DNA of 64,000 nucleotides from the NCBI GenBank assembly GCA_046482735.1, contig JAWOEL010000080.1, positions 2,124 to 66,123 on the forward strand, written 5' to 3'. Both the position numbers and the translations under genes were made by a program. The stretch comes from Bacteroidales bacterium. Lineage in GTDB: Bacteria > Bacteroidota > Bacteroidia > Bacteroidales > UBA1715. Below are positions 41,207 through 56,809 of this stretch, piece by piece (position 1 is the first letter of the stretch; each line of letters starts with the position of its first letter). Below the pieces are notes generated by a model. That model was not told the origin of the DNA and ran no database searches. It saw only the letters and a program-made list of their open reading frames with translations.

Positions 41207-42484
41207 TTACATAGAATTTGTGTTATTAAGAATTTTATGCCCAAAAGCACACTGCAAGCATTTACGTTTTGTGCAGTAGTTGTTGGATAATTCTAACAGA
41301 GCTTGACTGCGAAATGCATTATTGCATTGAATATCTAACTTGTTCCATGAATTTGTTATAGAATTTTTTTCGCAGGGTAGGTCTTCTAAAAATTCCAATG
41401 CCCTGTTTGTAAACATATCTTGCTTTGTATAGGTGCCATAGGCAAATAAAAATGGAACTACGGTGTTTATGAGTATAGTGTTGATAGTTGTATTGCCCAT
41501 TTTTTTGATTCGAAAAGTAGATTTTTGCGAAAGCCTGTAATGTGTGTGCCAGTAGGAGTGGAGTTGTGTTGTAAAAATGTGTGCACAATTATTTACGTTT
41601 TCGCAATTGATGATTAAACTACAGATATGTTGGTGTGTGTGTAAGAGAGCAGCAAATTGAGCAATTCGAATAGTCGGAAAATTAGCTGGTCGCATGCGTG
41701 CGAATTTCCATAATTCTCGCGAAATAGGTGTGAGCCTGTATTTTTTTTGCAAAAAAGAGTATTCTTGTATTAATTTGTGAGAATAATCATCGCAATTACA
41801 TTTCGGTAGAAGCTGAGCCTGCCCAAATAATAAAGCCTCTAGTTGAAATAAAGAGTGTGCGTGTTTCATGAGAATTGTACGCGGCAATGACTGAGCTAAG
41901 GCCTCAAAAGCTAGAGCATTGGTTTTTACTCCGAAATTTTTGGCAAGAGTCTCGTACATGGTATCTTCCCAGTTATTATTAAGAGTGTAGTATCGAGCTA
42001 TTATGTCGCGGGCTTTTCTTTCAAAACGTTCGATTACCAACCTGTCGAACCAGGCTGACTTATAAATACCGTCAATATAAGAGAGTTTTTCAAAACATAT
42101 AGTGTTGTCGGGCATGTGTTCTATATGTTGCAATGTGTGTTGTATATCTTTTGATATAGGTATAATTACGGTAGGAATGGAGCTCCCGTTTTGGTTTTGT
42201 ATTTCCGAATCATATTCGTACACAATGTGCAGAATTACCGAATTATATGCAGGATTTTTTTCGTGCTTGTGTTGGAACCAATCGCTTGCACGTATGTGAA
42301 TTTCTATATCACCTACCCAGAGTGTGTTATTGATGTAAATGTGTGCTTGTGTAAAATCAGGTCCCGAATCGGTATTGTGTATACCAATTTTTTGTATGCG
42401 TACGGGTTCATTTTCAACTGTTTGCAGTTGTGTGGTGTCGAATAATTGAAATTTCCACACATAGTGTAAAAAAACTTCTTTCAT
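41207..42484 (-). CDS. DUF2851-family protein
   Basis: A 425-aa protein with N-terminus MKEVFLHYVWKFQLF and a C-terminal Cys motif (CTKRKCLQCAFG), as I recall for DUF2851. The call is from memory only. Confidence 0.6.
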   Translation of the reverse strand: MKEVFLHYVWKFQLFDTTQLQTVENEPVRIQKIGIHNTDSGPDFTQAHIYINNTLWVGDIEIHIRASDWFQHKHEKNPAYNSVILHIVYEYDSEIQNQNGSSIPTVIIPISKDIQHTLQHIEHMPDNTICFEKLSYIDGIYKSAWFDRLVIERFERKARDIIARYYTLNNNWEDTMYETLAKNFGVKTNALAFEALAQSLPRTILMKHAHSLFQLEALLFGQAQLLPKCNCDDYSHKLIQEYSFLQKKYRLTPISRELWKFARMRPANFPTIRIAQFAALLHTHQHICSLIINCENVNNCAHIFTTQLHSYWHTHYRLSQKSTFRIKKMGNTTINTILINTVVPFLFAYGTYTKQDMFTNRALEFLEDLPCEKNSITNSWNKLDIQCNNAFRSQALLELSNNYCTKRKCLQCAFGHKILNNTNSM

Positions 42485-42569
42485 GGCTGCGATTTTTGTT
42501 TACACAAAAATACAGCTTTTTTACAAAACTCAAAAATTCACAATTTTTTGTTTAGAAGCGTTTTGTTAT

Positions 42570-44474
42570 TTAATAAGCACGTTTGTTGTTTTTTTCAATA
42601 AAATTAATAAAGGCATTATTTACAGCTCTGTTTCCTCCCGGAGTAGGATAATTTCCGGTAAAGTACCAGTCTCCTTGCGAAGTCGGACACGCAATGTGTA
42701 AGTTTTCGACTGTCTGGTATATAATATCAATACTAATGTCCACATCATCTGGGCGTAACATTTCAGATATTTTTTTACTTATCTGATCATCGGTAAAGGG
42801 AGCATATATATCCTGTACAAAATTTTGAATCTCTTCTTTTGGTAATGTTGATTGATCTTTTGATTTTTTATATACTTCGTTGATTATGTGTTCTTGTTTT
42901 GTGTCGTGCAATAATGCTATGGCAGCATTAAAAGCACATAAATCACCGAGTTTTGCCATATCTATACCATAACAGTCAGGGTATCTGATTTGTGGTGCAG
43001 ACGAAACAATTATTATTTTTTTAGGTTGTAGACGGGCAAGAATTTTAATAATGCTTTTTTTAAGGGTTGTACCACGAACAATAGAATCGTCAATAACAAT
43101 TAAATTGTCAGTATCTTTTACTATACCATATGTAACGTCATATACGTGGGCAACTAAATCGTCACGGCTTTTGTCTTCGGTAATAAAAGTACGGAGTTTC
43201 GCATCTTTAATTGCTATTTTTTCTAAATGAGCACCTTCTTGTATAATTTCATGTAATTTTTCAGGAGTTAACCCTCCATTATTTTGCAATGCAAGAATTT
43301 TTTCTTCTTTAATTGTATTTATATAGTCTTGCATTCCCTCAATCATTCCATAATATGCAATTTCTGCGGTATTAGGAATAAAAGACATTACCGAATTTTT
43401 ATAATCGTAATTAATTGATTTTAGAATCTGAGGAAGTAGCAATCGACCTAATTTTTTACGTTCCTGATAAATATCTGCATCGCCACCTCTGGAAAAATAT
43501 ATTCGTTCGAATGAACATGCAGTAAGTTTTTTGGGTTTTCTCACTTCTTCAACATGTACGCTGCCATCTTTTTTTACAATAACAGCTTGCCCCGGAGGAA
43601 CTTCTTTAATTGATTCAAAGGGGACATTAAATGCTGTTTGAATTACCGGACGCTCAGACGTAGCAACTACAATTTCATCATCTGCATAATAAAAAGCCGG
43701 TCGTATGCCTGAGGGGTCTCTTGTAATAAAAGAATCACCATTACCAATTATTCCGGAAATAACATATCCGCCGTCCCAATGTTTTGAGGCTTCTCTTAAA
43801 ATATGAGAGATAGATAATTCTTCTGAAATAAGTTCAGATATTTCAACATTTGTTTTTCCTTGCTCTTTGTATTTAGTGAAAATGCGTTGGTTTTCACGAT
43901 CCAGAAAATGACCAATTTTTTCTAAAATAGTTATTATATCGGTATATGCTCGCGGATGTTGTCCTAAATCGAGAAGTTTTTGGTACAGTTCATCCATATT
44001 TGCAAGGTTAAAGTTTCCTGCAAGCATGAGAGAGCGTGTTTTCCAATTGCTTTCACGTTTTACCGGATGCGTGTTTGCTATATCATAATCGCCAAATGTA
44101 CCATAGCGTAAATGAGCTAAATACATGTCGGCTGCATATTGCGTATTGTGTTTTGCCCAATGAGCATCTTTTAGTAACTCCGGATTGGTTTTTTGTATTT
44201 CAAGATATGGTTTGTTAATTTCTTTAAAAAGTGAAATAATCGGCGATGCTTCTGTAGAGCGAATGCGCGTAAGAAAGTCCGAGCCCTTATCTGTATCTAA
44301 TTTGCAAAAAGCAATGCCTGCACCGTCTTGCCCACGGTTGTGCTGCTTTTCCATAAGTAAATACAATTTGTTTAAACCATATTTCCATGTACCGTATTTT
44401 GCTTGATAATACTCGAGAGGTTTTAGTAATCTGATGAATGCAATGCCGCATTCATGTTTAATTGAGTCGCTCAT
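42570..44474 (-). CDS. purF: amidophosphoribosyltransferase (long Bacteroidota-type)
   Basis: Ntn class-II amidotransferase N-terminus (MSDSIKHECGIAFI) and a PRTase motif (LIVIDDSIVRGTT). Confidence 0.88.
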   Translation of the reverse strand: MSDSIKHECGIAFIRLLKPLEYYQAKYGTWKYGLNKLYLLMEKQHNRGQDGAGIAFCKLDTDKGSDFLTRIRSTEASPIISLFKEINKPYLEIQKTNPELLKDAHWAKHNTQYAADMYLAHLRYGTFGDYDIANTHPVKRESNWKTRSLMLAGNFNLANMDELYQKLLDLGQHPRAYTDIITILEKIGHFLDRENQRIFTKYKEQGKTNVEISELISEELSISHILREASKHWDGGYVISGIIGNGDSFITRDPSGIRPAFYYADDEIVVATSERPVIQTAFNVPFESIKEVPPGQAVIVKKDGSVHVEEVRKPKKLTACSFERIYFSRGGDADIYQERKKLGRLLLPQILKSINYDYKNSVMSFIPNTAEIAYYGMIEGMQDYINTIKEEKILALQNNGGLTPEKLHEIIQEGAHLEKIAIKDAKLRTFITEDKSRDDLVAHVYDVTYGIVKDTDNLIVIDDSIVRGTTLKKSIIKILARLQPKKIIIVSSAPQIRYPDCYGIDMAKLGDLCAFNAAIALLHDTKQEHIINEVYKKSKDQSTLPKEEIQNFVQDIYAPFTDDQISKKISEMLRPDDVDISIDIIYQTVENLHIACPTSQGDWYFTGNYPTPGGNRAVNNAFINFIEKNNKRAY

Positions 44475-44625
44475 TTTTTTGTATATTTACTTTACTTTGC
44501 AAAAGTATAAATTTATTATCTGCTTTATCTTTTCTCTATATTTTTTTTACGTTTTTTTCTCTATTTTTTTTTTAATAAAGATTATATCTTACATTTATAC
44601 TTTTAAGATATGTCATAATGTAAAC

Positions 44626-46326
44626 ATGAAAAATTTACGTAAATATATACATTCTCTTTTGCTTACTGAGTATATAATCTATATATATGTACTGTATGGA
44701 CTGTTTTTTTTATTAACAGCAAGTATCGGTTTTTTTTTTAATGACAGTAATATTATTGCATTCTCACTTATAGTAAGTATAGTAAGTTTTGTATATACAA
44801 TACCCAAAATATCTCGCTATCCCTTTTATTTTCTTATACTCTTTTCGTGTGTGTATGTGGTATTTTTGCATTTCATAAGTTATCCGCACTTTTTATTTGT
44901 GAGTGTGTTTGTTCTTATGTTTGCCGCATTGTTTCGTTTTTATAAAATACTTGTTTTCTTTGGACTAAGTATTTTTCTTTTTTCCTTGTATGCTAGTTTT
45001 GTTGTACACAACCAAAATGTGAATGCAATTCATGTTATGTATATGTTGGTTTATTTATTTTTGTGCGGTTTTAGTGCACTTGTTCGCTTTTCGGCAGTTA
45101 AACGAAGCAAAGAGCACACCCAAACTTCGCGGGATTTAAATAAACATCAAATTTCTATAGATATATTATCAGATATATCGTATAAAGTCCGGACGTATTT
45201 AAGTTCAGTCTTAGGTTTTTTTACTTTGCTTAAAAATGAACATATTGATTTAGGTAAACAAAATAATGATTTTGTTACACGATTATATAATGAAAACAGA
45301 AGTCTTTTGGCTTTGTTTGATGAGCACATATCTACCACCTATAATATGCATGAATCACAAAATAAACTGTTTGAAGATGTATTTAAAGAAGTGCTTGCCG
45401 AGCATGTGACTAATGGTGAGATTGTATTGGACGATTTTGTGGTTGAGGTTGATGAGTCTGTTGTGCAAAATATTCAAGAAGACTATGATGAAGTGCGTAT
45501 AATTTTTTCGGAAATAATAACATCTATACGTGCAAGTAAGAAAAAACTTGCAATTCCCGGAATTAGTGTCAGGATAGTACAACCACTTGAATCGAAAACA
45601 AGTGTTACTTTTTTGTTTGAAGTGTTTGTTGATGGTATAAAAAAATTAATACACCCAGCCCCGACACAAATTGATTTGTTTTCTGATTCATATTCAAATA
45701 CTGAATTATTATTACAAGAAAACCAGCATAAAAGATTTGCCCATATTTTATTGCATCGCACTATTCAAATACTTGATCAGCAGCATGCAAAAATTGGCCT
45801 GGTACAACCATCCCGAACTAAAGTTGGCTTTGTCTTTAGTTATTCGTTTTGGAAGAAAAAACCTGTAAAAACAACATTTTCTGAATCGTACAAAGAGAAA
45901 CACACAGAGCAATCACAAGAACATGTATCGATTTCAGAATTGCATGTTTTGTTGGTAGAAGATAATTTAATGAATCAAAATATGGTTGCCATGATTTTAC
46001 AAAAACGTGTAAAAGAAGTTTTGGTAGCAAATAATGGCAAAGAAGCATTACAAATTCTCTCTACATCAAAAGTTGATGTTGTATTAATGGATATTCAAAT
46101 GCCAATAATGGATGGATATCAGGCAACGGAGCGCATAAGAGAAATTGAGTTGGCAAACGAAATATATACTCCTATTATAGCTTTAACGGCAAATGCTCTC
46201 GATAATGAACGCACATTGTGTATAGAAAAAGGAATGGATGGGTATTTGAGTAAACCATTTGGAGTTAAGGAGCTTATGGGTGTTATCGAAGAGGTGATGT
46301 ATAAAAAAACGCATGTACCTGAATGA
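44626..46326 (+). CDS. membrane protein with degenerate histidine-kinase-like core and C-terminal response-regulator receiver domain
   Basis: About 5 N-terminal TM helices, then an H-box-like segment, DILSDISYKVRTYLSSVLGF, with Tyr where the phospho-His is expected. I see no convincing N/G1/G2 ATP-binding boxes. The REC domain is intact (LLVEDNLMNQ, VVLMDIQMPIMDG, ALTANAL, YLSKPF). I placed the start at MKNLRKY to avoid overlap with purF. Confidence 0.7.
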   Translation: MKNLRKYIHSLLLTEYIIYIYVLYGLFFLLTASIGFFFNDSNIIAFSLIVSIVSFVYTIPKISRYPFYFLILFSCVYVVFLHFISYPHFLFVSVFVLMFAALFRFYKILVFFGLSIFLFSLYASFVVHNQNVNAIHVMYMLVYLFLCGFSALVRFSAVKRSKEHTQTSRDLNKHQISIDILSDISYKVRTYLSSVLGFFTLLKNEHIDLGKQNNDFVTRLYNENRSLLALFDEHISTTYNMHESQNKLFEDVFKEVLAEHVTNGEIVLDDFVVEVDESVVQNIQEDYDEVRIIFSEIITSIRASKKKLAIPGISVRIVQPLESKTSVTFLFEVFVDGIKKLIHPAPTQIDLFSDSYSNTELLLQENQHKRFAHILLHRTIQILDQQHAKIGLVQPSRTKVGFVFSYSFWKKKPVKTTFSESYKEKHTEQSQEHVSISELHVLLVEDNLMNQNMVAMILQKRVKEVLVANNGKEALQILSTSKVDVVLMDIQMPIMDGYQATERIREIELANEIYTPIIALTANALDNERTLCIEKGMDGYLSKPFGVKELMGVIEEVMYKKTHVPE

Positions 46327-46421
46327 TACTATTGTTTTATAATGCTTGCATTATTATTTTCTAATAATTATTAAATTTTAAAAATAAATTTGTGGTAGTA
46401 AATCCTCAGTTGTTGTTTCAA

Positions 46422-47645
46422 ATGAATGGACTTGTAGTTTTTATATTGTTTATAGCACTCGTTATTGTATATACCTATAAAGCGTATCAAAATTCTCGTA
46501 CAGTATCTACCCACAAAATAAGATTAATTTATGGAATTATAACATTTTTGCTGGTTATAGGATTTCTACTTATGTGGCAGCGGCAAGTAGACAATTATGC
46601 CAGCATTACTATGATTAAGAATATATGCATAGGTTTGTCAGTAGCATTACTTGTTTCGATGCTTATAACTGTATCAGCATTTTTACTCGAAGATATAGTG
46701 CGAATTGTACTATGGATCAAACGAAGTATTCAGCATAAAAAACGTGTAGTACTTCCCGCCCGAACCAACACAATACGAGTAGCCACCCTTGCCATTACCG
46801 TATTAATAGTAAGTGCAGTATTGTATGGTGTCGTATGGGGCTTTTCGCATTACAAAGTACATTATGTGGATTTTGCACATCCCGATATTCCCACAGAATT
46901 TGATGGATTTACTATTGCACAGATTTCTGATACCCATTTAGGAACCTTTGGAAGTATAAAGCAAGTACAAAAAGGGCTGGATGTGCTACAACAACAAAAT
47001 CCCGATATGGTTGTATTTACCGGAGATATGGTAAACAACAAATCAGAAGAAGCCGAGCGATACATATCAATGTTTGCACATATAAAGGCACCCTATGGTA
47101 AATTTGCTGTGTTGGGAAATCATGATTATGCCCACTATGCCGGCAATTTGACAGAACAAGAGCAGCACCACGATGTCGAAAAATTACGAAAGATAATAGG
47201 ACAGATGGGTTTTGAAATATTAGAAAATGAACACCGCACTATTATACAATCTGCCGACACCATACAATTGGTAGGAGTAGAAAATTGGGGCTTAAAGCCA
47301 TTTCCACAATATGGCGATTTAGATAAATCCATGCAAGAAACAGAAAAAAAAATGTTTACAGTATTGTTATCTCATGATCCATCACATTGGCGACACGAAA
47401 TAGTCGAATATGTCCCACCTATAGAATTGACTCTGAGTGGTCATACGCATGGCATGCAATTTGGTTTTGAAATTGGAGATACCAAATGGAGTCCCATACA
47501 ATACCGCTATTCCGATTGGGCAGGATTATTTGAATACAATAACCGCTATTTATACGTGAATCGCGGTTTCGGTGGAATTGGCTTTCCCGCACGCATAGGC
47601 ATACGTCCTGAAATTACCGTTATTAGATTGCAATCCGAAGAGTAA
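46422..47645 (+). CDS. membrane-anchored calcineurin-like metallophosphoesterase (YkuE-like)
   Basis: N-terminal TM helices, then the metallophosphoesterase motifs ISDTHLG, GDMVN, GNHDY and SGHTHG. The track start is a GTG at 46392, which overlaps a TAAATTTG -7 box (46385-46392), so I prefer the ATG at 46422. Confidence 0.8.
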   Translation: MNGLVVFILFIALVIVYTYKAYQNSRTVSTHKIRLIYGIITFLLVIGFLLMWQRQVDNYASITMIKNICIGLSVALLVSMLITVSAFLLEDIVRIVLWIKRSIQHKKRVVLPARTNTIRVATLAITVLIVSAVLYGVVWGFSHYKVHYVDFAHPDIPTEFDGFTIAQISDTHLGTFGSIKQVQKGLDVLQQQNPDMVVFTGDMVNNKSEEAERYISMFAHIKAPYGKFAVLGNHDYAHYAGNLTEQEQHHDVEKLRKIIGQMGFEILENEHRTIIQSADTIQLVGVENWGLKPFPQYGDLDKSMQETEKKMFTVLLSHDPSHWRHEIVEYVPPIELTLSGHTHGMQFGFEIGDTKWSPIQYRYSDWAGLFEYNNRYLYVNRGFGGIGFPARIGIRPEITVIRLQSEE

Positions 47646-47656
47646 ATATATCATCA

Positions 47657-47704
47657 ACCCCCGTCAGTGGTTGCAAACCCTGACGGTGGTGTTTACAAAA
47701 CACC
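47657..47704. repeat. ~45-nt hairpin element, solitary copy (related to the hairpin inside each tandem unit at 48950-48990 and 49167-49207)
   Basis: ACCCCCGTCAGtggttgcaaaccCTGACGGTGGT has arms CCGTCAG at 47661-47667 and CTGACGG at 47680-47686. It is followed by a second small hairpin, GGTGTTTacaAAACACC, and a T-run. It sits between the convergent 3' ends of two genes. Confidence 0.75.
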
Positions 47705-47714
47705 GTATGTTTTT

Positions 47715-48533
47715 TTATTTTTTTCTGAAACGCACACATTCAAAATGTGTATTATTTGTTTGGTCGAAACGGTTTAGGTCGCATAGCATATTTTCTTCGA
47801 AGTCTTCTTCATCGTAATGTTTACAGATTGTACATAAACCAGGTATTGGAATTAAATCAGTATTGATTGGCTTGCCATTGTCATCAAAAAGTCCTCCGTT
47901 CGAAAATATGTGTTCGGTTTCATTTCGAGAAGCAATTTTATCTATTTTGAATTCATCCTCAAAAAAATCATCCCGGTTATGTAACCATTCTTCAATTTCA
48001 CTTTTTGAGAGAAGCATATGTTCAATAGATTTATCTAATAAATCATGGAAGTCGGTATATTTCTTATCTTCGGCTTCTTTTCTGAAGTCTTCACAATTTG
48101 TGCAATACCCCGGAAAAGGACAATGAGCATCATCATAATCGCAAAATTCAATATGGACATAACCAACAGATACAGCAACATGGCTTTCCGCCCATAGTTT
48201 GTAGATAAAGGGATATCGAAGATGAGTCGGGTACATTTCCGGAAAATCTAAACAGAAATGATAATACTGTAGTAAATTTTCTAATTCTGTTGCCAACAGA
48301 GTTTGTTGCTCTTGATTTAATTTTTTCGGAGGAGGAAGTTGAACGTGTTCAATGCCGGTTATTTTTTCTATAGACTCTTCTTCACCATGAACATATTTTT
48401 CAATATTTAAGATGTTCAATTCAACTTCGTTATCCGGTTTTTGGGGTAAATCTTTCCAAACCTCATGAGTCGGTTTTAAATTCCACGTAGCGTTCCGAAT
48501 ATCATCAATTAAATGTTCAATGTAGTGTTGCAT
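47715..48533 (-). CDS. hypothetical acidic Cys-rich protein
   Basis: The ORF is 291 aa from 48590, or 272 aa from the MQHYIEHL Met at 48533. A minus-strand -7 box TATCTTTG (plus coordinates 48578-48585) favours the latter. There are two Cys clusters, CDYDDAHCPFPGYCTNC and CTICKHY...C...C. I recognise no family. Confidence 0.55.
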   Translation of the reverse strand: MQHYIEHLIDDIRNATWNLKPTHEVWKDLPQKPDNEVELNILNIEKYVHGEEESIEKITGIEHVQLPPPKKLNQEQQTLLATELENLLQYYHFCLDFPEMYPTHLRYPFIYKLWAESHVAVSVGYVHIEFCDYDDAHCPFPGYCTNCEDFRKEAEDKKYTDFHDLLDKSIEHMLLSKSEIEEWLHNRDDFFEDEFKIDKIASRNETEHIFSNGGLFDDNGKPINTDLIPIPGLCTICKHYDEEDFEENMLCDLNRFDQTNNTHFECVRFRKK

Positions 48534-48741: not shown

Positions 48742-48903
48742 GGGACAATTCCATTTTGGTACGATTAAAAGGTTTTAAAAGAGGGGGGATTGAAATCAAC
48801 AATCGGAAATTTCAATTCCATTCTGGTACGATTAAAAGTACTTAATTTAATGTAAATATTGAACAGTTTGTAGATTTCAATTCCATTCTGGTACGATTAA
48901 AAG
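48742..48903 (-). CRISPR. mini-CRISPR array: 3 repeats of 30 nt (two identical, one degenerate) and 2 spacers (37 and 35 nt); no cas genes in the window
   Basis: ATTTCAATTCCATTCTGGTACGATTAAAAG occurs at 48809-48838 and 48874-48903. A degenerate copy, GGGACAATTCCATTTTGGTACGATTAAAAG, lies at 48742-48771. The two spacers are unrelated in sequence. Read on the minus strand the repeat ends in ATTGAAAT, resembling the ATTGAAA(C/G) 3' end of Cas6-processed type I-B/III repeats, and the degenerate copy becomes the last repeat. The minus orientation is inferred from these two points. Confidence 0.6.
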
Positions 48904-49340
48904 TGTGGTAAGGGCAGTGCATTTTATCGTTAATTTTGGTGCACCCTCGTCAAACCCCGTCAGTGGTGCAAACCCTGACGGTGGTTACGTAAAAAAAAGA
49001 AAATGTACGTAATCTATTATAAAAAAACAGACAGTCGACATTAGAACAGACAGCGTTTCGTCGAAGAAAAACATATAGTATTACTATCACCCTCAACAGA
49101 GGCTTCGACCACTGTTGAGGTGTGGCACGGGCAGTGCATTTTATTAGTAATTTTGGTGCACCCTCGTCAAACCCCATCAGTGGTTGTAAACCCTGACGGT
49201 GGTTACGAAAAAAAAAGAAAATGTACGTAATCTATTATAAAAAAACGGATAGTCGACATTAGAACAGACAGCGTTTTATCGAAAAAGAGAAACATATTAC
49301 TATCACCATCAACAGGGTCTTCGACCACTGTTGATGTGTG
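48904..49340. repeat. tandem direct repeat: two units of 217 and 216 nt plus the first 5 nt of a third, each with three conserved hairpins
   Basis: Unit 1 spans 48904-49120 and unit 2 spans 49121-49336, both starting TGTGG, followed by TGTGG again at 49337. By eye the units are roughly nine-tenths identical, with small indels. The hairpins are CCGTCAG/CTGACGG, TTACGTA/TACGTAA, and CCTCAACAG/CTGTTGAGG (CATCAACAG/CTGTTGATG in unit 2). Confidence 0.85.
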
Positions 49341-49348
49341 GGGGGGAG

Positions 49349-49384
49349 AAAAAAAAGACCCGACAGGAGTGAACCTGCCGAGCC
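49349..49384 (-). terminator. rho-independent terminator of ftsZ / the dcw operon
   Basis: The minus strand reads GGCTCGGCAGG-ttcact-CCTGTCGGGTC-TTTTTTTT. This is an 11-bp stem (with G-U pairs) and a U8 tract, about 40 nt after the ftsZ stop. Confidence 0.75.
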
Positions 49385-49420
49385 TTAATTTACGCATATC
49401 CGCACTATAATTCGTTTATG

Positions 49421-50911
49421 TTAATCAGCGTTGTAGTCCAGGTATTTATTATTGTTTGATAAATATATACCGTCTTCATTTTCATCTATTGAAAATCGTG
49501 ATGGTTCATTTTTTTTTTCGTTGTGTGTATTGTGTTCAGAATTTTCTTCAAAAGGATGTGTTGTGTGTTTTTTGTGTTCTTGTTCTTGTTGTTTGCGAAT
49601 ATATGCCGGTTGATTTTCAAATTCTGTTATATCATCCATTTTTCGTACTTTTTCGTATTCAAATGATTGAATAGGATTTTTATCATCGTCTTGTGTATGA
49701 TTGTTTGTTCCATTAAAAGGACTGTCTTCGTTTATAAGGCGTATTTTTTTCTTAGGTTTATTGTTTGTGCTGGCATTTTCAAATGAGCCCCAGTTTATTT
49801 GTGTTTGTACCGCATCACCATCGTGTTCGTCCGATGATAGTGTTCCTACCATTTTTTTGTCGGAATTTTCCGGTGGTGTTTCGTCTTCGCGTAATTCATT
49901 TACTTTTATTGGGGTTGGTTGTTTGAAATCGGGTAGGTGTTTCATTTCAAAACCTGTGGCAATAAGGGTAACGCATATTTCATCGTGTAATGATTCGTTT
50001 TTTACGTATCCCCATATTATGTTTACATCACGTTCTGCTTTTTCAATTATGTGATTTGTTACTATTGTAATTTCATCCATTGTAATTTCATTTTCGCCCG
50101 AGGTGAAGTTCAGGAGAATATCTTTTGCACCGCGTATGTCTGCTTTGTTGAGCAGGGGCGAGTCGAGTGTTTCCTGAATAGCTTCTATTGCTCTGTTTTC
50201 TCCCGAAGATGTGCCGGATGACATGATAGAAACGCCACTGTCTTTCATGACGGTTTTTACGTCTTCAAAATCTACATTTATTATCCCGTTTACTGTAATA
50301 ATTTCTGCAATCCCTTTTGCGGCGATAGTTAATACATCATCAGCTTTTGCAAATGCATCGGTAATTTTGAGATTTCCGTATTTTTCGCGTAGTGTTTCGT
50401 TGTTAATAATAAGCATCGAATCTACGTGTTCTCTCAGAGATTCTACTCCTTTGAGAGCGTAATTGTATCGTGTTTTTCCTTCAAAAGCAAACGGAACTGT
50501 AACTATACCAACGGTTAAAATGCCTAAACTTTTTGAGATTTCTGCAATTACCGGGGCTGCACCTGTTCCGGTGCCACCTCCCATTCCGGCAGTAATGAAT
50601 GTCATTTGGGTATCGTCGGATAATAATTTTTCTATTTCGGCAGTGCTTTCTTTTGCGGCATTTTGTCCAACTTCCGGATTACTTCCGGCTCCTCGTCCGG
50701 CTGTGAGGCCGTTACCAATTTGTACTTTTGTGGGGATTGAACTTTTTTGTAAATCTTGCATGTCGGTATTACAAACCACAAAATCTACATCTTTTATCCC
50801 GAGTTCGTACATATGGTTTACTGCATTGCTACCGCCGCCTCCTACACCAATTACTTTGATTGATGTGGTTCGTTGTTGCGGAATGTCGAAGTTTATAATT
50901 TCATCAGCCAT
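49421..50911 (-). CDS. ftsZ: cell division protein FtsZ (with extended C-terminal tail)
   Basis: Tubulin signature GGGTGTGAAP and GVGGGGSNAV. A conserved C-terminal peptide-like QPAYIRK is followed by 56 further residues. Confidence 0.97.
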   Translation of the reverse strand: MADEIINFDIPQQRTTSIKVIGVGGGGSNAVNHMYELGIKDVDFVVCNTDMQDLQKSSIPTKVQIGNGLTAGRGAGSNPEVGQNAAKESTAEIEKLLSDDTQMTFITAGMGGGTGTGAAPVIAEISKSLGILTVGIVTVPFAFEGKTRYNYALKGVESLREHVDSMLIINNETLREKYGNLKITDAFAKADDVLTIAAKGIAEIITVNGIINVDFEDVKTVMKDSGVSIMSSGTSSGENRAIEAIQETLDSPLLNKADIRGAKDILLNFTSGENEITMDEITIVTNHIIEKAERDVNIIWGYVKNESLHDEICVTLIATGFEMKHLPDFKQPTPIKVNELREDETPPENSDKKMVGTLSSDEHDGDAVQTQINWGSFENASTNNKPKKKIRLINEDSPFNGTNNHTQDDDKNPIQSFEYEKVRKMDDITEFENQPAYIRKQQEQEHKKHTTHPFEENSEHNTHNEKKNEPSRFSIDENEDGIYLSNNNKYLDYNAD

Positions 50912-55586: not shown

Positions 55587-56809
55587 TGTTCTTGTTTTTT
55601 TAATGAGTTTTCTGATTCAATTTTTCTGCTCACGCCTAAAATTATGCCAAAAGAAATGCTTGTTGTCAATAACGACGAAGCTCCATGACTAATTATTGGT
55701 AATGGTTGTCCTGTTGCGGGGAGCAGATTTACCGCAACGCCCATATGTATAAATGCTTGAAAAACTAAACTAAATGTTAAACCTATTACTAATAAAGCCG
55801 GAAATGTGTAATTGCATTTTCTAACTATAAATGCTGCCCGGTATAGAATTACTAAGTAGAGTAATATAATAACAATACCACCAAACAGTCCGTAATCTTC
55901 TATAATAATTGCATATATAAAATCGCAATATGCTTGTGATAAACGGTATTTTTGATTGCTGTTTCCCGGTGCTTTACCAATAATACCTCCTTCTGCTATT
56001 GCTATTTTTGCTTGGGTAACCTGATAGTTGTCTATTTTTTTAATGAGTTCTTGCCCTTTATTTTCATCATATCCGGAGGCGTATGGAGCTAGTTCGGGGA
56101 CAAAACTTACAATTCTGTTTTGCCATGTATATCCTCGGTTAAACAATTCAGGATTTTTGAAAATAATAGTTCCCATTACCAATACCATCACAAGCCCCGA
56201 GCCTGTAAGTATAAGTATATGTTTTGCCGGTACTCTGCCAATTATGAGTAGTATAAATACTGTCATAATTATGAAAAAGGAGGTTGAGAAATTAGATATG
56301 AGAATCATGCTGCTTATCAATGCTGTTATTATCAGTATTGGGTAAAGTGCTTTTTTGGGATTATGTAAATTATTTTGATGTATAGAAAGTGTTTTTGTGA
56401 TGTATATTATAAGTGCTATTTTGGCAAATTCGCTCGGTTGAAATTGTATGCCAATGCCGGGAATTTGAATCCATCTGCTTGCATCGTTTGCACTAACAGC
56501 AAATGCACTGGAAAATGTGAGTGCTAAAAATAAAACAGCACATAATACCAAAAGATTTGCTAGTTTATATATCAGAATATAATCTATTTTATGAACCAAA
56601 AAGGCAATAGAAATTCCCACAGAAAGCGTTAAGGCTTGCTTTATTAAATATGACGTGGTATTGTTTTCGTTTCCGTTTATTGCGATAAGGCTTATTGACC
56701 CATACACTGCAATCAACGAAATAATAGACAGTAAAAACAATATGCGCCAAATAACTTTGTCGCCTTTAAACTGCGTTTTGAAAAATTCTATGATAGATGA
56801 TATGTTCAT
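55583..56809 (-). CDS. ftsW: SEDS-family peptidoglycan glycosyltransferase FtsW
   Basis: Polytopic FtsW/RodA/SpoVE family protein (QPSEFAKI, LPATGQPLPIISHGASS), in the expected dcw position. Confidence 0.88.
   Translation of the reverse strand: MNISSIIEFFKTQFKGDKVIWRILFLLSIISLIAVYGSISLIAINGNENNTTSYLIKQALTLSVGISIAFLVHKIDYILIYKLANLLVLCAVLFLALTFSSAFAVSANDASRWIQIPGIGIQFQPSEFAKIALIIYITKTLSIHQNNLHNPKKALYPILIITALISSMILISNFSTSFFIIMTVFILLIIGRVPAKHILILTGSGLVMVLVMGTIIFKNPELFNRGYTWQNRIVSFVPELAPYASGYDENKGQELIKKIDNYQVTQAKIAIAEGGIIGKAPGNSNQKYRLSQAYCDFIYAIIIEDYGLFGGIVIILLYLVILYRAAFIVRKCNYTFPALLVIGLTFSLVFQAFIHMGVAVNLLPATGQPLPIISHGASSLLTTSISFGIILGVSRKIESENSLKKQEQ

Follow-up and report, generated by a model that had tools for sequence, protein, structure and literature searches.

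Systems of repetitive extragenic palindromes (REPs) and REP-associated tyrosine transposases (RAYTs) are well studied in Proteobacteria. In Enterobacteria and Pseudomonas, RAYT/TnpA-REP mobilises the palindromes, which are arranged in bacterial interspersed mosaic elements (BIMEs) or in REPIN doublets (REP doublet-forming hairpins). To our knowledge, such systems in Bacteroidota have been known only as "atypical secondary structures" beside a RAYT subclass. This subclass, 2.6, occurs mostly in Bacteroidetes, has the tyrosine motif YIH[QN]NP and is accompanied by "atypical secondary structures" without GTAG (PMC6006769). A CGTC-tagged REP superfamily without a dedicated transposase was also reported in Bacteroidetes, with an unpaired terminal CGTC tag, stems of 8-9 bp, loops of 4-5 nt and a CCA tail (PMC3733652). 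Here we analysed a 64-kb stretch of a Bacteroidales contig (JAWOEL010000080.1; hereafter the window), in which two tandem units of ~217 nt lie between ftsZ and a short array resembling clustered regularly interspaced short palindromic repeats (CRISPR). The units probably represent an intergenic, BIME-like tandem cluster of composite REP-type palindromes, located after ftsZ and belonging to a Bacteroidota-wide hairpin family.

Composite units of paired hairpins

Pairwise alignment bore out the preliminary description of two head-to-tail units (48904-49120 and 49121-49336, strand unassigned), which were 93% identical with small indels and showed full-length homology to units of the closest relative, L025. 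The 217-nt period was absent from the Tandem Repeats Finder output and was found by repeat search and pairwise alignment. Unit 1 directly abuts the last 30-nt CRISPR-like repeat (48874-48903), as had been noted.

Four hairpins had been listed in each unit. Two of them, here called A (CCGTCAG) and B (9 bp), folded better than shuffled sequence, and the other two did not. Hairpin A of unit 1, CCCCGTCAGTGG-TGCAA-ACCCTGACGGTGG (48955-48984, plus strand), includes the CCGTCAG/CTGACGG stem and a bulged T and gave a DNA fold of -12.5 kcal/mol (z -4.8). The unit 2 copy (49172-49202, plus strand; z -2.75) reads CCATCAG/CTGACGG, where G has changed to A (CCCCATCAG), leaving an A.C mismatch. Hairpin B is the inverted partner of A and reads CCTCAACAGTGG..CTCTGTTGAGGG on the minus strand; its arms were confirmed as CCTCAACAG/CTGTTGAGG in unit 1 (49091-49120, z -4.95) and CATCAACAG/CTGTTGATG in unit 2 (49307-49336, z -4.97). 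Hairpins A and B are 30-31 nt long, with DNA folds of -7.8 to -12.6 kcal/mol and z from -2.8 to -5.0. They follow one layout, CC-N7-T(bulge)-GGNN-loop3-NNCC-N7'-T(bulge)-GG. The stem comprises two G-C pairs, then a variable core of 7 bp and, past a bulged T, an inner stem of 4 bp that closes a 3-nt loop; a second, matching T is bulged out of the 3' arm. Hairpin B (CCTCAACAGTGG-loop-CCCTGTTGATGG) shows this layout on the minus strand and hairpin A (CCCCGTCAGTGG-loop-CCCTGACGGTGG) on the plus strand. Two other readings of these hairpins were considered from sequence and dropped: a tRNA-like loop in A, as the loops vary freely, and an integron attC site in B, as the R'/R'' consensus and the size are unfit. 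As imperfect inverted repeats, A and B could also be read in the manner of a miniature inverted-repeat transposable element.

The remaining parts of the units were less conserved. The linker hairpin GGGCAGTGCA...TGCACCC was present in both units as described (48912-48946 and 49129-49163, plus strand), folded weakly (z -0.64) and was lineage-specific, its 3' arm being absent in the L012, L025 and L010 loci. A candidate Bacteroidota -7 box, TAnnTTTG, in its loop (TAATTTTG, 48931-48938) was dropped, being unconserved in L012 and L010 and having no TTTG -33 partner. The hairpin TTACGTA/TACGTAA was intact in unit 1, whereas unit 2 reads TTACGAA; folded alone, it gave z of -1.8 and -0.5 against shuffled sequence. 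Alignment and the consensus fold revealed a decayed third REP-like hairpin (49027-49057, strand unassigned), which is intact in L025 as CCTGTCAGCGTCGCAGACCTGACAGCG and has lost its self-complementarity in the window. The unit phase chosen earlier is arbitrary; the core that recurs in relatives runs from hairpin B through the linker to hairpin A, across the earlier unit boundary. A third unit is begun by the TGTGG at 49337, as had been noticed, and from TGTGGTGGGGCAG, which follows hairpin B in L010, this truncated start probably extends to ~49348. The 12 nt concerned (TGTGGGGGGGAG, 49337-49348, strand unassigned) align with TGTGGTGGGGCAG and then run into the ftsZ terminator.

The preliminary description had taken each unit for a discrete structured RNA. 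Whole units indeed folded better than shuffles (z -2.8 to -3.7), and homologues with covarying stems exist. However, a search of the whole window against Rfam 15 at the gathering score found no known RNA family, in agreement with the earlier failure to match one, and between 48500 and 49500 up to E = 10 the matches over the units were at chance level, the only real ones being sub-threshold CRISPR-DR2 matches at the repeats. An RNAalifold consensus of four full units from three genomes predicted only local hairpins, namely B, a weak linker stem, A and the third hairpin (intact in L025, broken in the window), with an unfavourable covariation term (+2.12); the ~100 nt between the hairpins were AT-rich, unpaired and poorly conserved. 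Two of the four listed hairpins were no better than shuffles, and unit 2 carries one of these in broken form. Inside the units, a scan for sigma-70-type consensus, which does not cover Bacteroidota promoters, gave neither promoter-like nor terminator-like sites on either strand. Furthermore, copy number and linkers vary freely, and the units are missing after ftsZ in relatives with 71% FtsZ identity, where the ftsZ terminator is kept. Tandem duplicates of a small RNA gene, transcribed from the minus strand and possibly acting with the CRISPR array, are therefore quite unlikely. A protein product, judged unlikely before, was also rejected: the minus-strand open reading frames (ORFs) of 75 and 64 aa lie in different frames and belong to no Pfam family.

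Two arguments of the preliminary description did not survive comparison with relatives. The first was a coordinated double substitution in hairpin B, C-G in one unit and A-T in the other. In an alignment of the B-linker-A core with 12 rows, 11 of which carry hairpin B, 9 of the 11 copies have an A.G mismatch at this pair, which is C-G only in unit 1 and A-U only in unit 2. Each unit is thus one independent substitution, on opposite arms, away from the ancestral state. The mismatched base of the A.G pair is the bulged T of the family viewed from the other strand. Mismatch correction within the hairpin in either direction, or chance, may explain the changes in the two units. True covariation was found at an inner pair of B, which is U-A in seven copies, A-U in two and G-U in one. 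The second argument placed the transcript tentatively on the minus strand from a G-U wobble in unit 2; it rests on the single G-to-A change, which lies at a CpG, and wobbles in the family occur on both strands.

A Bacteroidota hairpin family and its link to RAYTs

We scanned one genome per species for hairpin A with the pattern CAGTGG-N1-6-AAACCCTGACGGTGG and obtained 19 loci, of which 15 were Bacteroidota with a complete hairpin. They span several orders and include Prolixibacter, several Bacteroidales metagenome-assembled genomes (MAGs), Ferruginibacter and Chitinophagales. The other four, from cyanobacteria and Alphaproteobacteria (L006, L007, L009 and L011), have no 5' arm and were taken as unrelated. 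Hairpin A was often surrounded by other hairpins of the CTGACAGG or CTGTCGG type. Over 14 distinct family members, 99.5% of cells were paired, and both sides had changed at 7 of the 13 pairs. The variable core was partly selected by the search pattern, but the inner pairs 13-19 and 14-18, which the pattern does not constrain, covary too. The earlier expectation of conserved hairpins with homologues in other genomes was therefore correct, and the stems of the wider family covary. Of 40 family hairpins in the sequences analysed, 36 lie outside open frames of at least 120 aa, and all five window copies are intergenic. Across the family, the orientation relative to neighbouring genes varies, several copies stand at contig ends, and the flanks read AAACC/CC...TGGT. 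A metagenome scan with the hairpin B pattern returned two loci only, the exact pattern being probably too strict.

Homologous units were also compared between genomes. The closest relative (L025/L026) has an FtsZ 80% identical to that of the window, and its DNA is 74% identical over window positions 55953 to 49349. It has the same ftsZ terminator, followed by ~5 tandem units of 220 and 226 nt in a 446-nt higher-order duplication. These units are 68-74% identical to the window units over their full length, and hairpins A and B are ~93-94% identical. The L012 MAG is syntenic with the window from 42430 to 47625 and has two tandem units right after the orthologous phosphoesterase gene, with no array. 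At its contig end, right after the units (L012 5634-5689), is an ORF beginning MNLIEFITQYPDEESCKQK, possibly the N terminus of an IS1595-family transposase. In the metagenome contig L021, a 92%-identical unit fragment adjoins a RecF/SMC_N gene that the window lacks. The B-linker-A order is kept in L010, L012, L015, L020 and L025, and other arrays around these hairpins have periods of ~124 nt (Ferruginibacter, L003), 390 nt (L010) and 740 nt (L020). The copy number differs accordingly, from two units in the window and in L012 to ~5 in L025.

These comparisons also bear on the assembly of the window. Its source is a MAG, and related arrays break assemblies; the L026 assembly ends inside its unit array. 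However, a collapsed or expanded copy would not diverge as the two units do, at ~7% of positions with indels among them; they are distinct sequences, and tandem homologous units occur in the independent assemblies L025, L012, L010 and L003. A duplication created by misassembly is extremely improbable.

The link to RAYTs came from Prolixibacter denitrificans (L013), in which a gene between family hairpins encodes a 216-aa HUH/Y1 protein with the motifs NHFH and YIHNNP. The gene has one hairpin on its 5' side, another inserted in frame and two on its 3' side, of which one is hairpin A, ~50 nt (51 by count) past the stop. The protein matches the NCBIfam model of REP-associated tyrosine transposases (NF047646; E 3e-16), with the match split by the insertion, and a weak alignment with E. 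coli TnpA-REP (PDB 4ER8) covers both catalytic motifs. Homologues of the protein at E ≤1e-10 number 3394, many of them named "REP element-mobilizing transposase RayT" by the Joint Genome Institute. Four distinct homologous RAYT genes were examined, and each has flanking hairpins of the AACCTGACAGGTTT..AAACCTGTCAGGTTT type or of a variant that covaries. In the L013 gene (6259-5609, minus strand), the in-frame REP hairpin encodes the peptide NLTGFQNLSGL. In-frame hairpin insertion has been reported for RAYT subclass 2.4, whereas the L013 protein has the tyrosine motif of subclass 2.6 (PMC6006769).

Several observations weigh against a RAYT-mobilised REP family. The L013 protein scored 59.6 bits, under the curated NCBIfam cut-off of 80, possibly through the in-frame insertion, and a Pfam search with it gave no match. 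The hairpins at the other RAYT genes are related, not identical, to hairpin A, and the RAYT link of hairpin A itself is one locus in a different family (Prolixibacter). There is no RAYT gene within the window, and the mobility of the hairpins is something that we infer. The hairpins lack the GTAG foot. Only five family hairpins were found in the 64 kb, at two neighbouring intergenic sites, and a high copy number in the source genome would be conjecture. REPs are usually lineage-specific, and the conservation of these hairpins across orders is unusually high for them. Because of the five hairpins at two sites, the missing RAYT gene in the window and the one-locus RAYT link, we hold the reading as a BIME-like cluster to be probable and no firmer.

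Some of the same observations suit intergenic hairpin repeats of the host that need no transposase. Such repeats would arise by local duplication, descend vertically and be kept by selection, either for RNA roles as 3'-end stabilisers, attenuators or insulators or for binding of a host protein. A solitary hairpin A within the 3' untranslated region (UTR) of the phosphoesterase gene, ahead of its terminator, the orthologous unit positions in the window and L025, the low copy number in the window and the hairpin conservation across orders are all consistent with this. However, the near-identical unit fragment beside an unrelated gene in L021, the hairpins flanking RAYT genes, the copies at contig ends, as with multi-copy repeats, and the inconstant orientation relative to neighbouring genes argue against it, and we consider this explanation unlikely.

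The probable CRISPR remnant and the neighbouring genes

The array next to unit 1 (48742-48903) consists of three repeats and two spacers. Two repeats of 30 nt each are perfect (48874-48903 and 48809-48838; CTTTTAATCGTACCAGAATGGAATTGAAAT), and the third is degenerate, with five mismatches (48742-48771). The CRISPR RNA (crRNA) sense is on the minus strand, where the repeat ends in ATTGAAAT. CRISPR-DR2 of Rfam matched the repeats with 27.5 bits, compared to a gathering score of 37 bits. No cas gene lies within the window, and no other array with this repeat was found in the viral contigs scanned or in the relatives' loci compared. The scan of viral contigs with hairpin A was equally without a match, and a phage origin is unsupported because both viral-contig scans were empty. 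In spacer 1, a stretch of 17 nt (48786-48802) is an inverted copy, with 88% complementarity, of the sequence where spacer 2 meets the last repeat (48868-48884), which is unusual for a spacer.

The preliminary description linked the units to this array, a connection that the relatives do not sustain: the units occur without an array in L012 and L021, and in L025 they stand next to a cas operon, not an array. That operon, of type I-B (cas6b-cas8b-cas7b-cas5, L025 7807-11443), follows the units. On the strand that carries ftsZ, the order in the window is ftsZ, the units, the two perfect repeats and the degenerate terminal repeat, and the crRNA sense of the array runs in the same direction as the L025 cas operon. 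The junction between unit 1 and the array falls exactly at the expected position of hairpin B. As L025 has the type I-B operon at the matching position after ftsZ, the orphan two-spacer array was probably left behind when a type I-B locus was deleted.

The position of the units also recalls a CRISPR leader that was duplicated. The units are partly AT-rich and, read in the crRNA sense, immediately precede the first repeat, with the degenerate repeat distal, so position and polarity fit those of known leaders. However, L012 and L021 have homologous units but no arrays, and in L025 the units lie between ftsZ and cas6b, across the cas operon, at the end opposite to that expected for leader and array. 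Furthermore, the junction at the expected hairpin B site points to a breakpoint rather than to an original contact of leader and repeat, and the window has no cas genes. We regard a leader identity as highly improbable. There is a slim chance that the REP-like cluster served as a recombination site for the gain and later loss of a type I-B island, or that it supplies a promoter or leader to an orphan array on which cas genes from another part of the genome still draw. If so, the expression or turnover of a CRISPR array would have co-opted a selfish hairpin repeat.

On the other side of the array, a 272-aa orphan gene (47715-48533, minus strand), an open frame with a cysteine-rich product, had no family in Pfam, NCBIfam or PADLOC. 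Its 28 homologue clusters, 40-58% identical, lie on Bacteroidota-like contigs in varied gene neighbourhoods; these contexts are unrelated and have no arrays or units, and the gene was rejected as part of the feature. Next to it is the metallophosphoesterase gene (46392-47645, plus strand; Pfam Metallophos). The solitary hairpin A, the third copy in the window (47659-47689, plus strand; z -4.1, repeat family D2), starts 14 nt past the stop of this gene, just ahead of its terminator-like hairpin. Within the region 47646-47690 it is preceded by TATCATCAAC, which is similar to the 5' arm of hairpin B, TATCACCATCAAC, and it could have originated from a B-linker-A doublet by internal deletion. The solitary hairpin A and the units together bracket the 272-aa gene and the CRISPR remnant.

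The right-hand limit of the repeat cluster is the intrinsic terminator of ftsZ (49386-49355, minus strand), which is kept in L025 and L027-L031; ftsZ itself occupies 49421-50911 (minus strand). In the ftsZ 3' UTR (49355-49410, minus strand), the motif TAGTGCGGATAT(AT)GCGT(A/T)AATTAAG is kept with the terminator in L025 and L027-L031, although the flanking DNA has diverged. The terminator stem varies among genomes yet still appears to pair, as judged by eye and uncounted. Motif and terminator may form a conserved 3'-UTR element.

Relation to described systems and possible history

The cluster shares several features with REPs, BIMEs and REPINs. Its palindromes are short, imperfect and extragenic, they alternate in orientation with conserved or semi-conserved linkers, and they form tandem clusters whose copy number varies between relatives. 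As in REP systems, some copies lie in 3' UTRs and family hairpins flank a RAYT gene, the latter only in another genus (L013, Prolixibacter). However, there is no 5' GTAG or GTGG foot, each stem arm has one bulged T, the unit measures ~217-226 nt compared to <100 nt in a typical BIME, the copy number in the available sequence is low, and the hairpin sequence is common to several Bacteroidota orders instead of being species-specific.

The structures reported beside subclass 2.6 RAYTs agree in phylum, in the motif YIH[QN]NP that the L013 protein carries and in the missing GTAG, and the inner part of hairpin A, CAGTGGTT-GCA-AACCCTG, is similar to examples listed for Bacteroides xylanisolvens (CCAGCGGATT-TAT-AATCCGCTG, CAGTGGATT..) (PMC6006769). 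The table in that report does not contain the exact hairpins A and B (CTGACGG is absent and the occurrences of CCGTCAG are unrelated), and composite ~220-nt tandem units are not described there (PMC6006769). With CGTC-tagged REPs (PMC3733652), hairpin A has in common that it contains CGTC and occurs in the same phylum. Here CGTC is paired inside a bulged stem of 11-13 bp and the loop has 3 nt, which sets the hairpin apart from that superfamily.

Each unit of the proposed BIME-like cluster consists of palindromes A and B in opposite orientation, separated by less conserved, AT-rich linkers that include the decayed third hairpin. The hairpins would form on single-stranded DNA, where a RAYT would recognise them and either move them or keep them uniform, and the number of units would shift by slippage or by unequal recombination between the repeated hairpins. 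The cluster, in a variable intergenic spot after ftsZ, would have been inherited from the common ancestor with L025 and reshaped since then by duplication and deletion. One deletion would have taken out the cas genes together with the leader and most of the array, so that the cluster now adjoins what is left, two spacers and the degenerate terminal repeat. By analogy with REPs, an effect on the host is possible, for example as an mRNA-stabilising 3'-end RNA hairpin or as an insulator between operons.

For genome scans, the locus holds two cautions: an apparent compensatory change was made of two independent single changes from a mismatched ancestor, and where the units touch a CRISPR array, loss of a cas locus is the best explanation. 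It opens no new biological question, and its value lies mainly in a clear consensus architecture for a little-described family. From the locus and its relatives, one such family can be given a concrete consensus, CC-N7-T-GGNN-loop-NNCC-N7'-T-GG, with symmetric bulged T residues and covarying variants; they also show it to form BIME-like tandem arrays of ~220 nt, which grow and shrink between close relatives.

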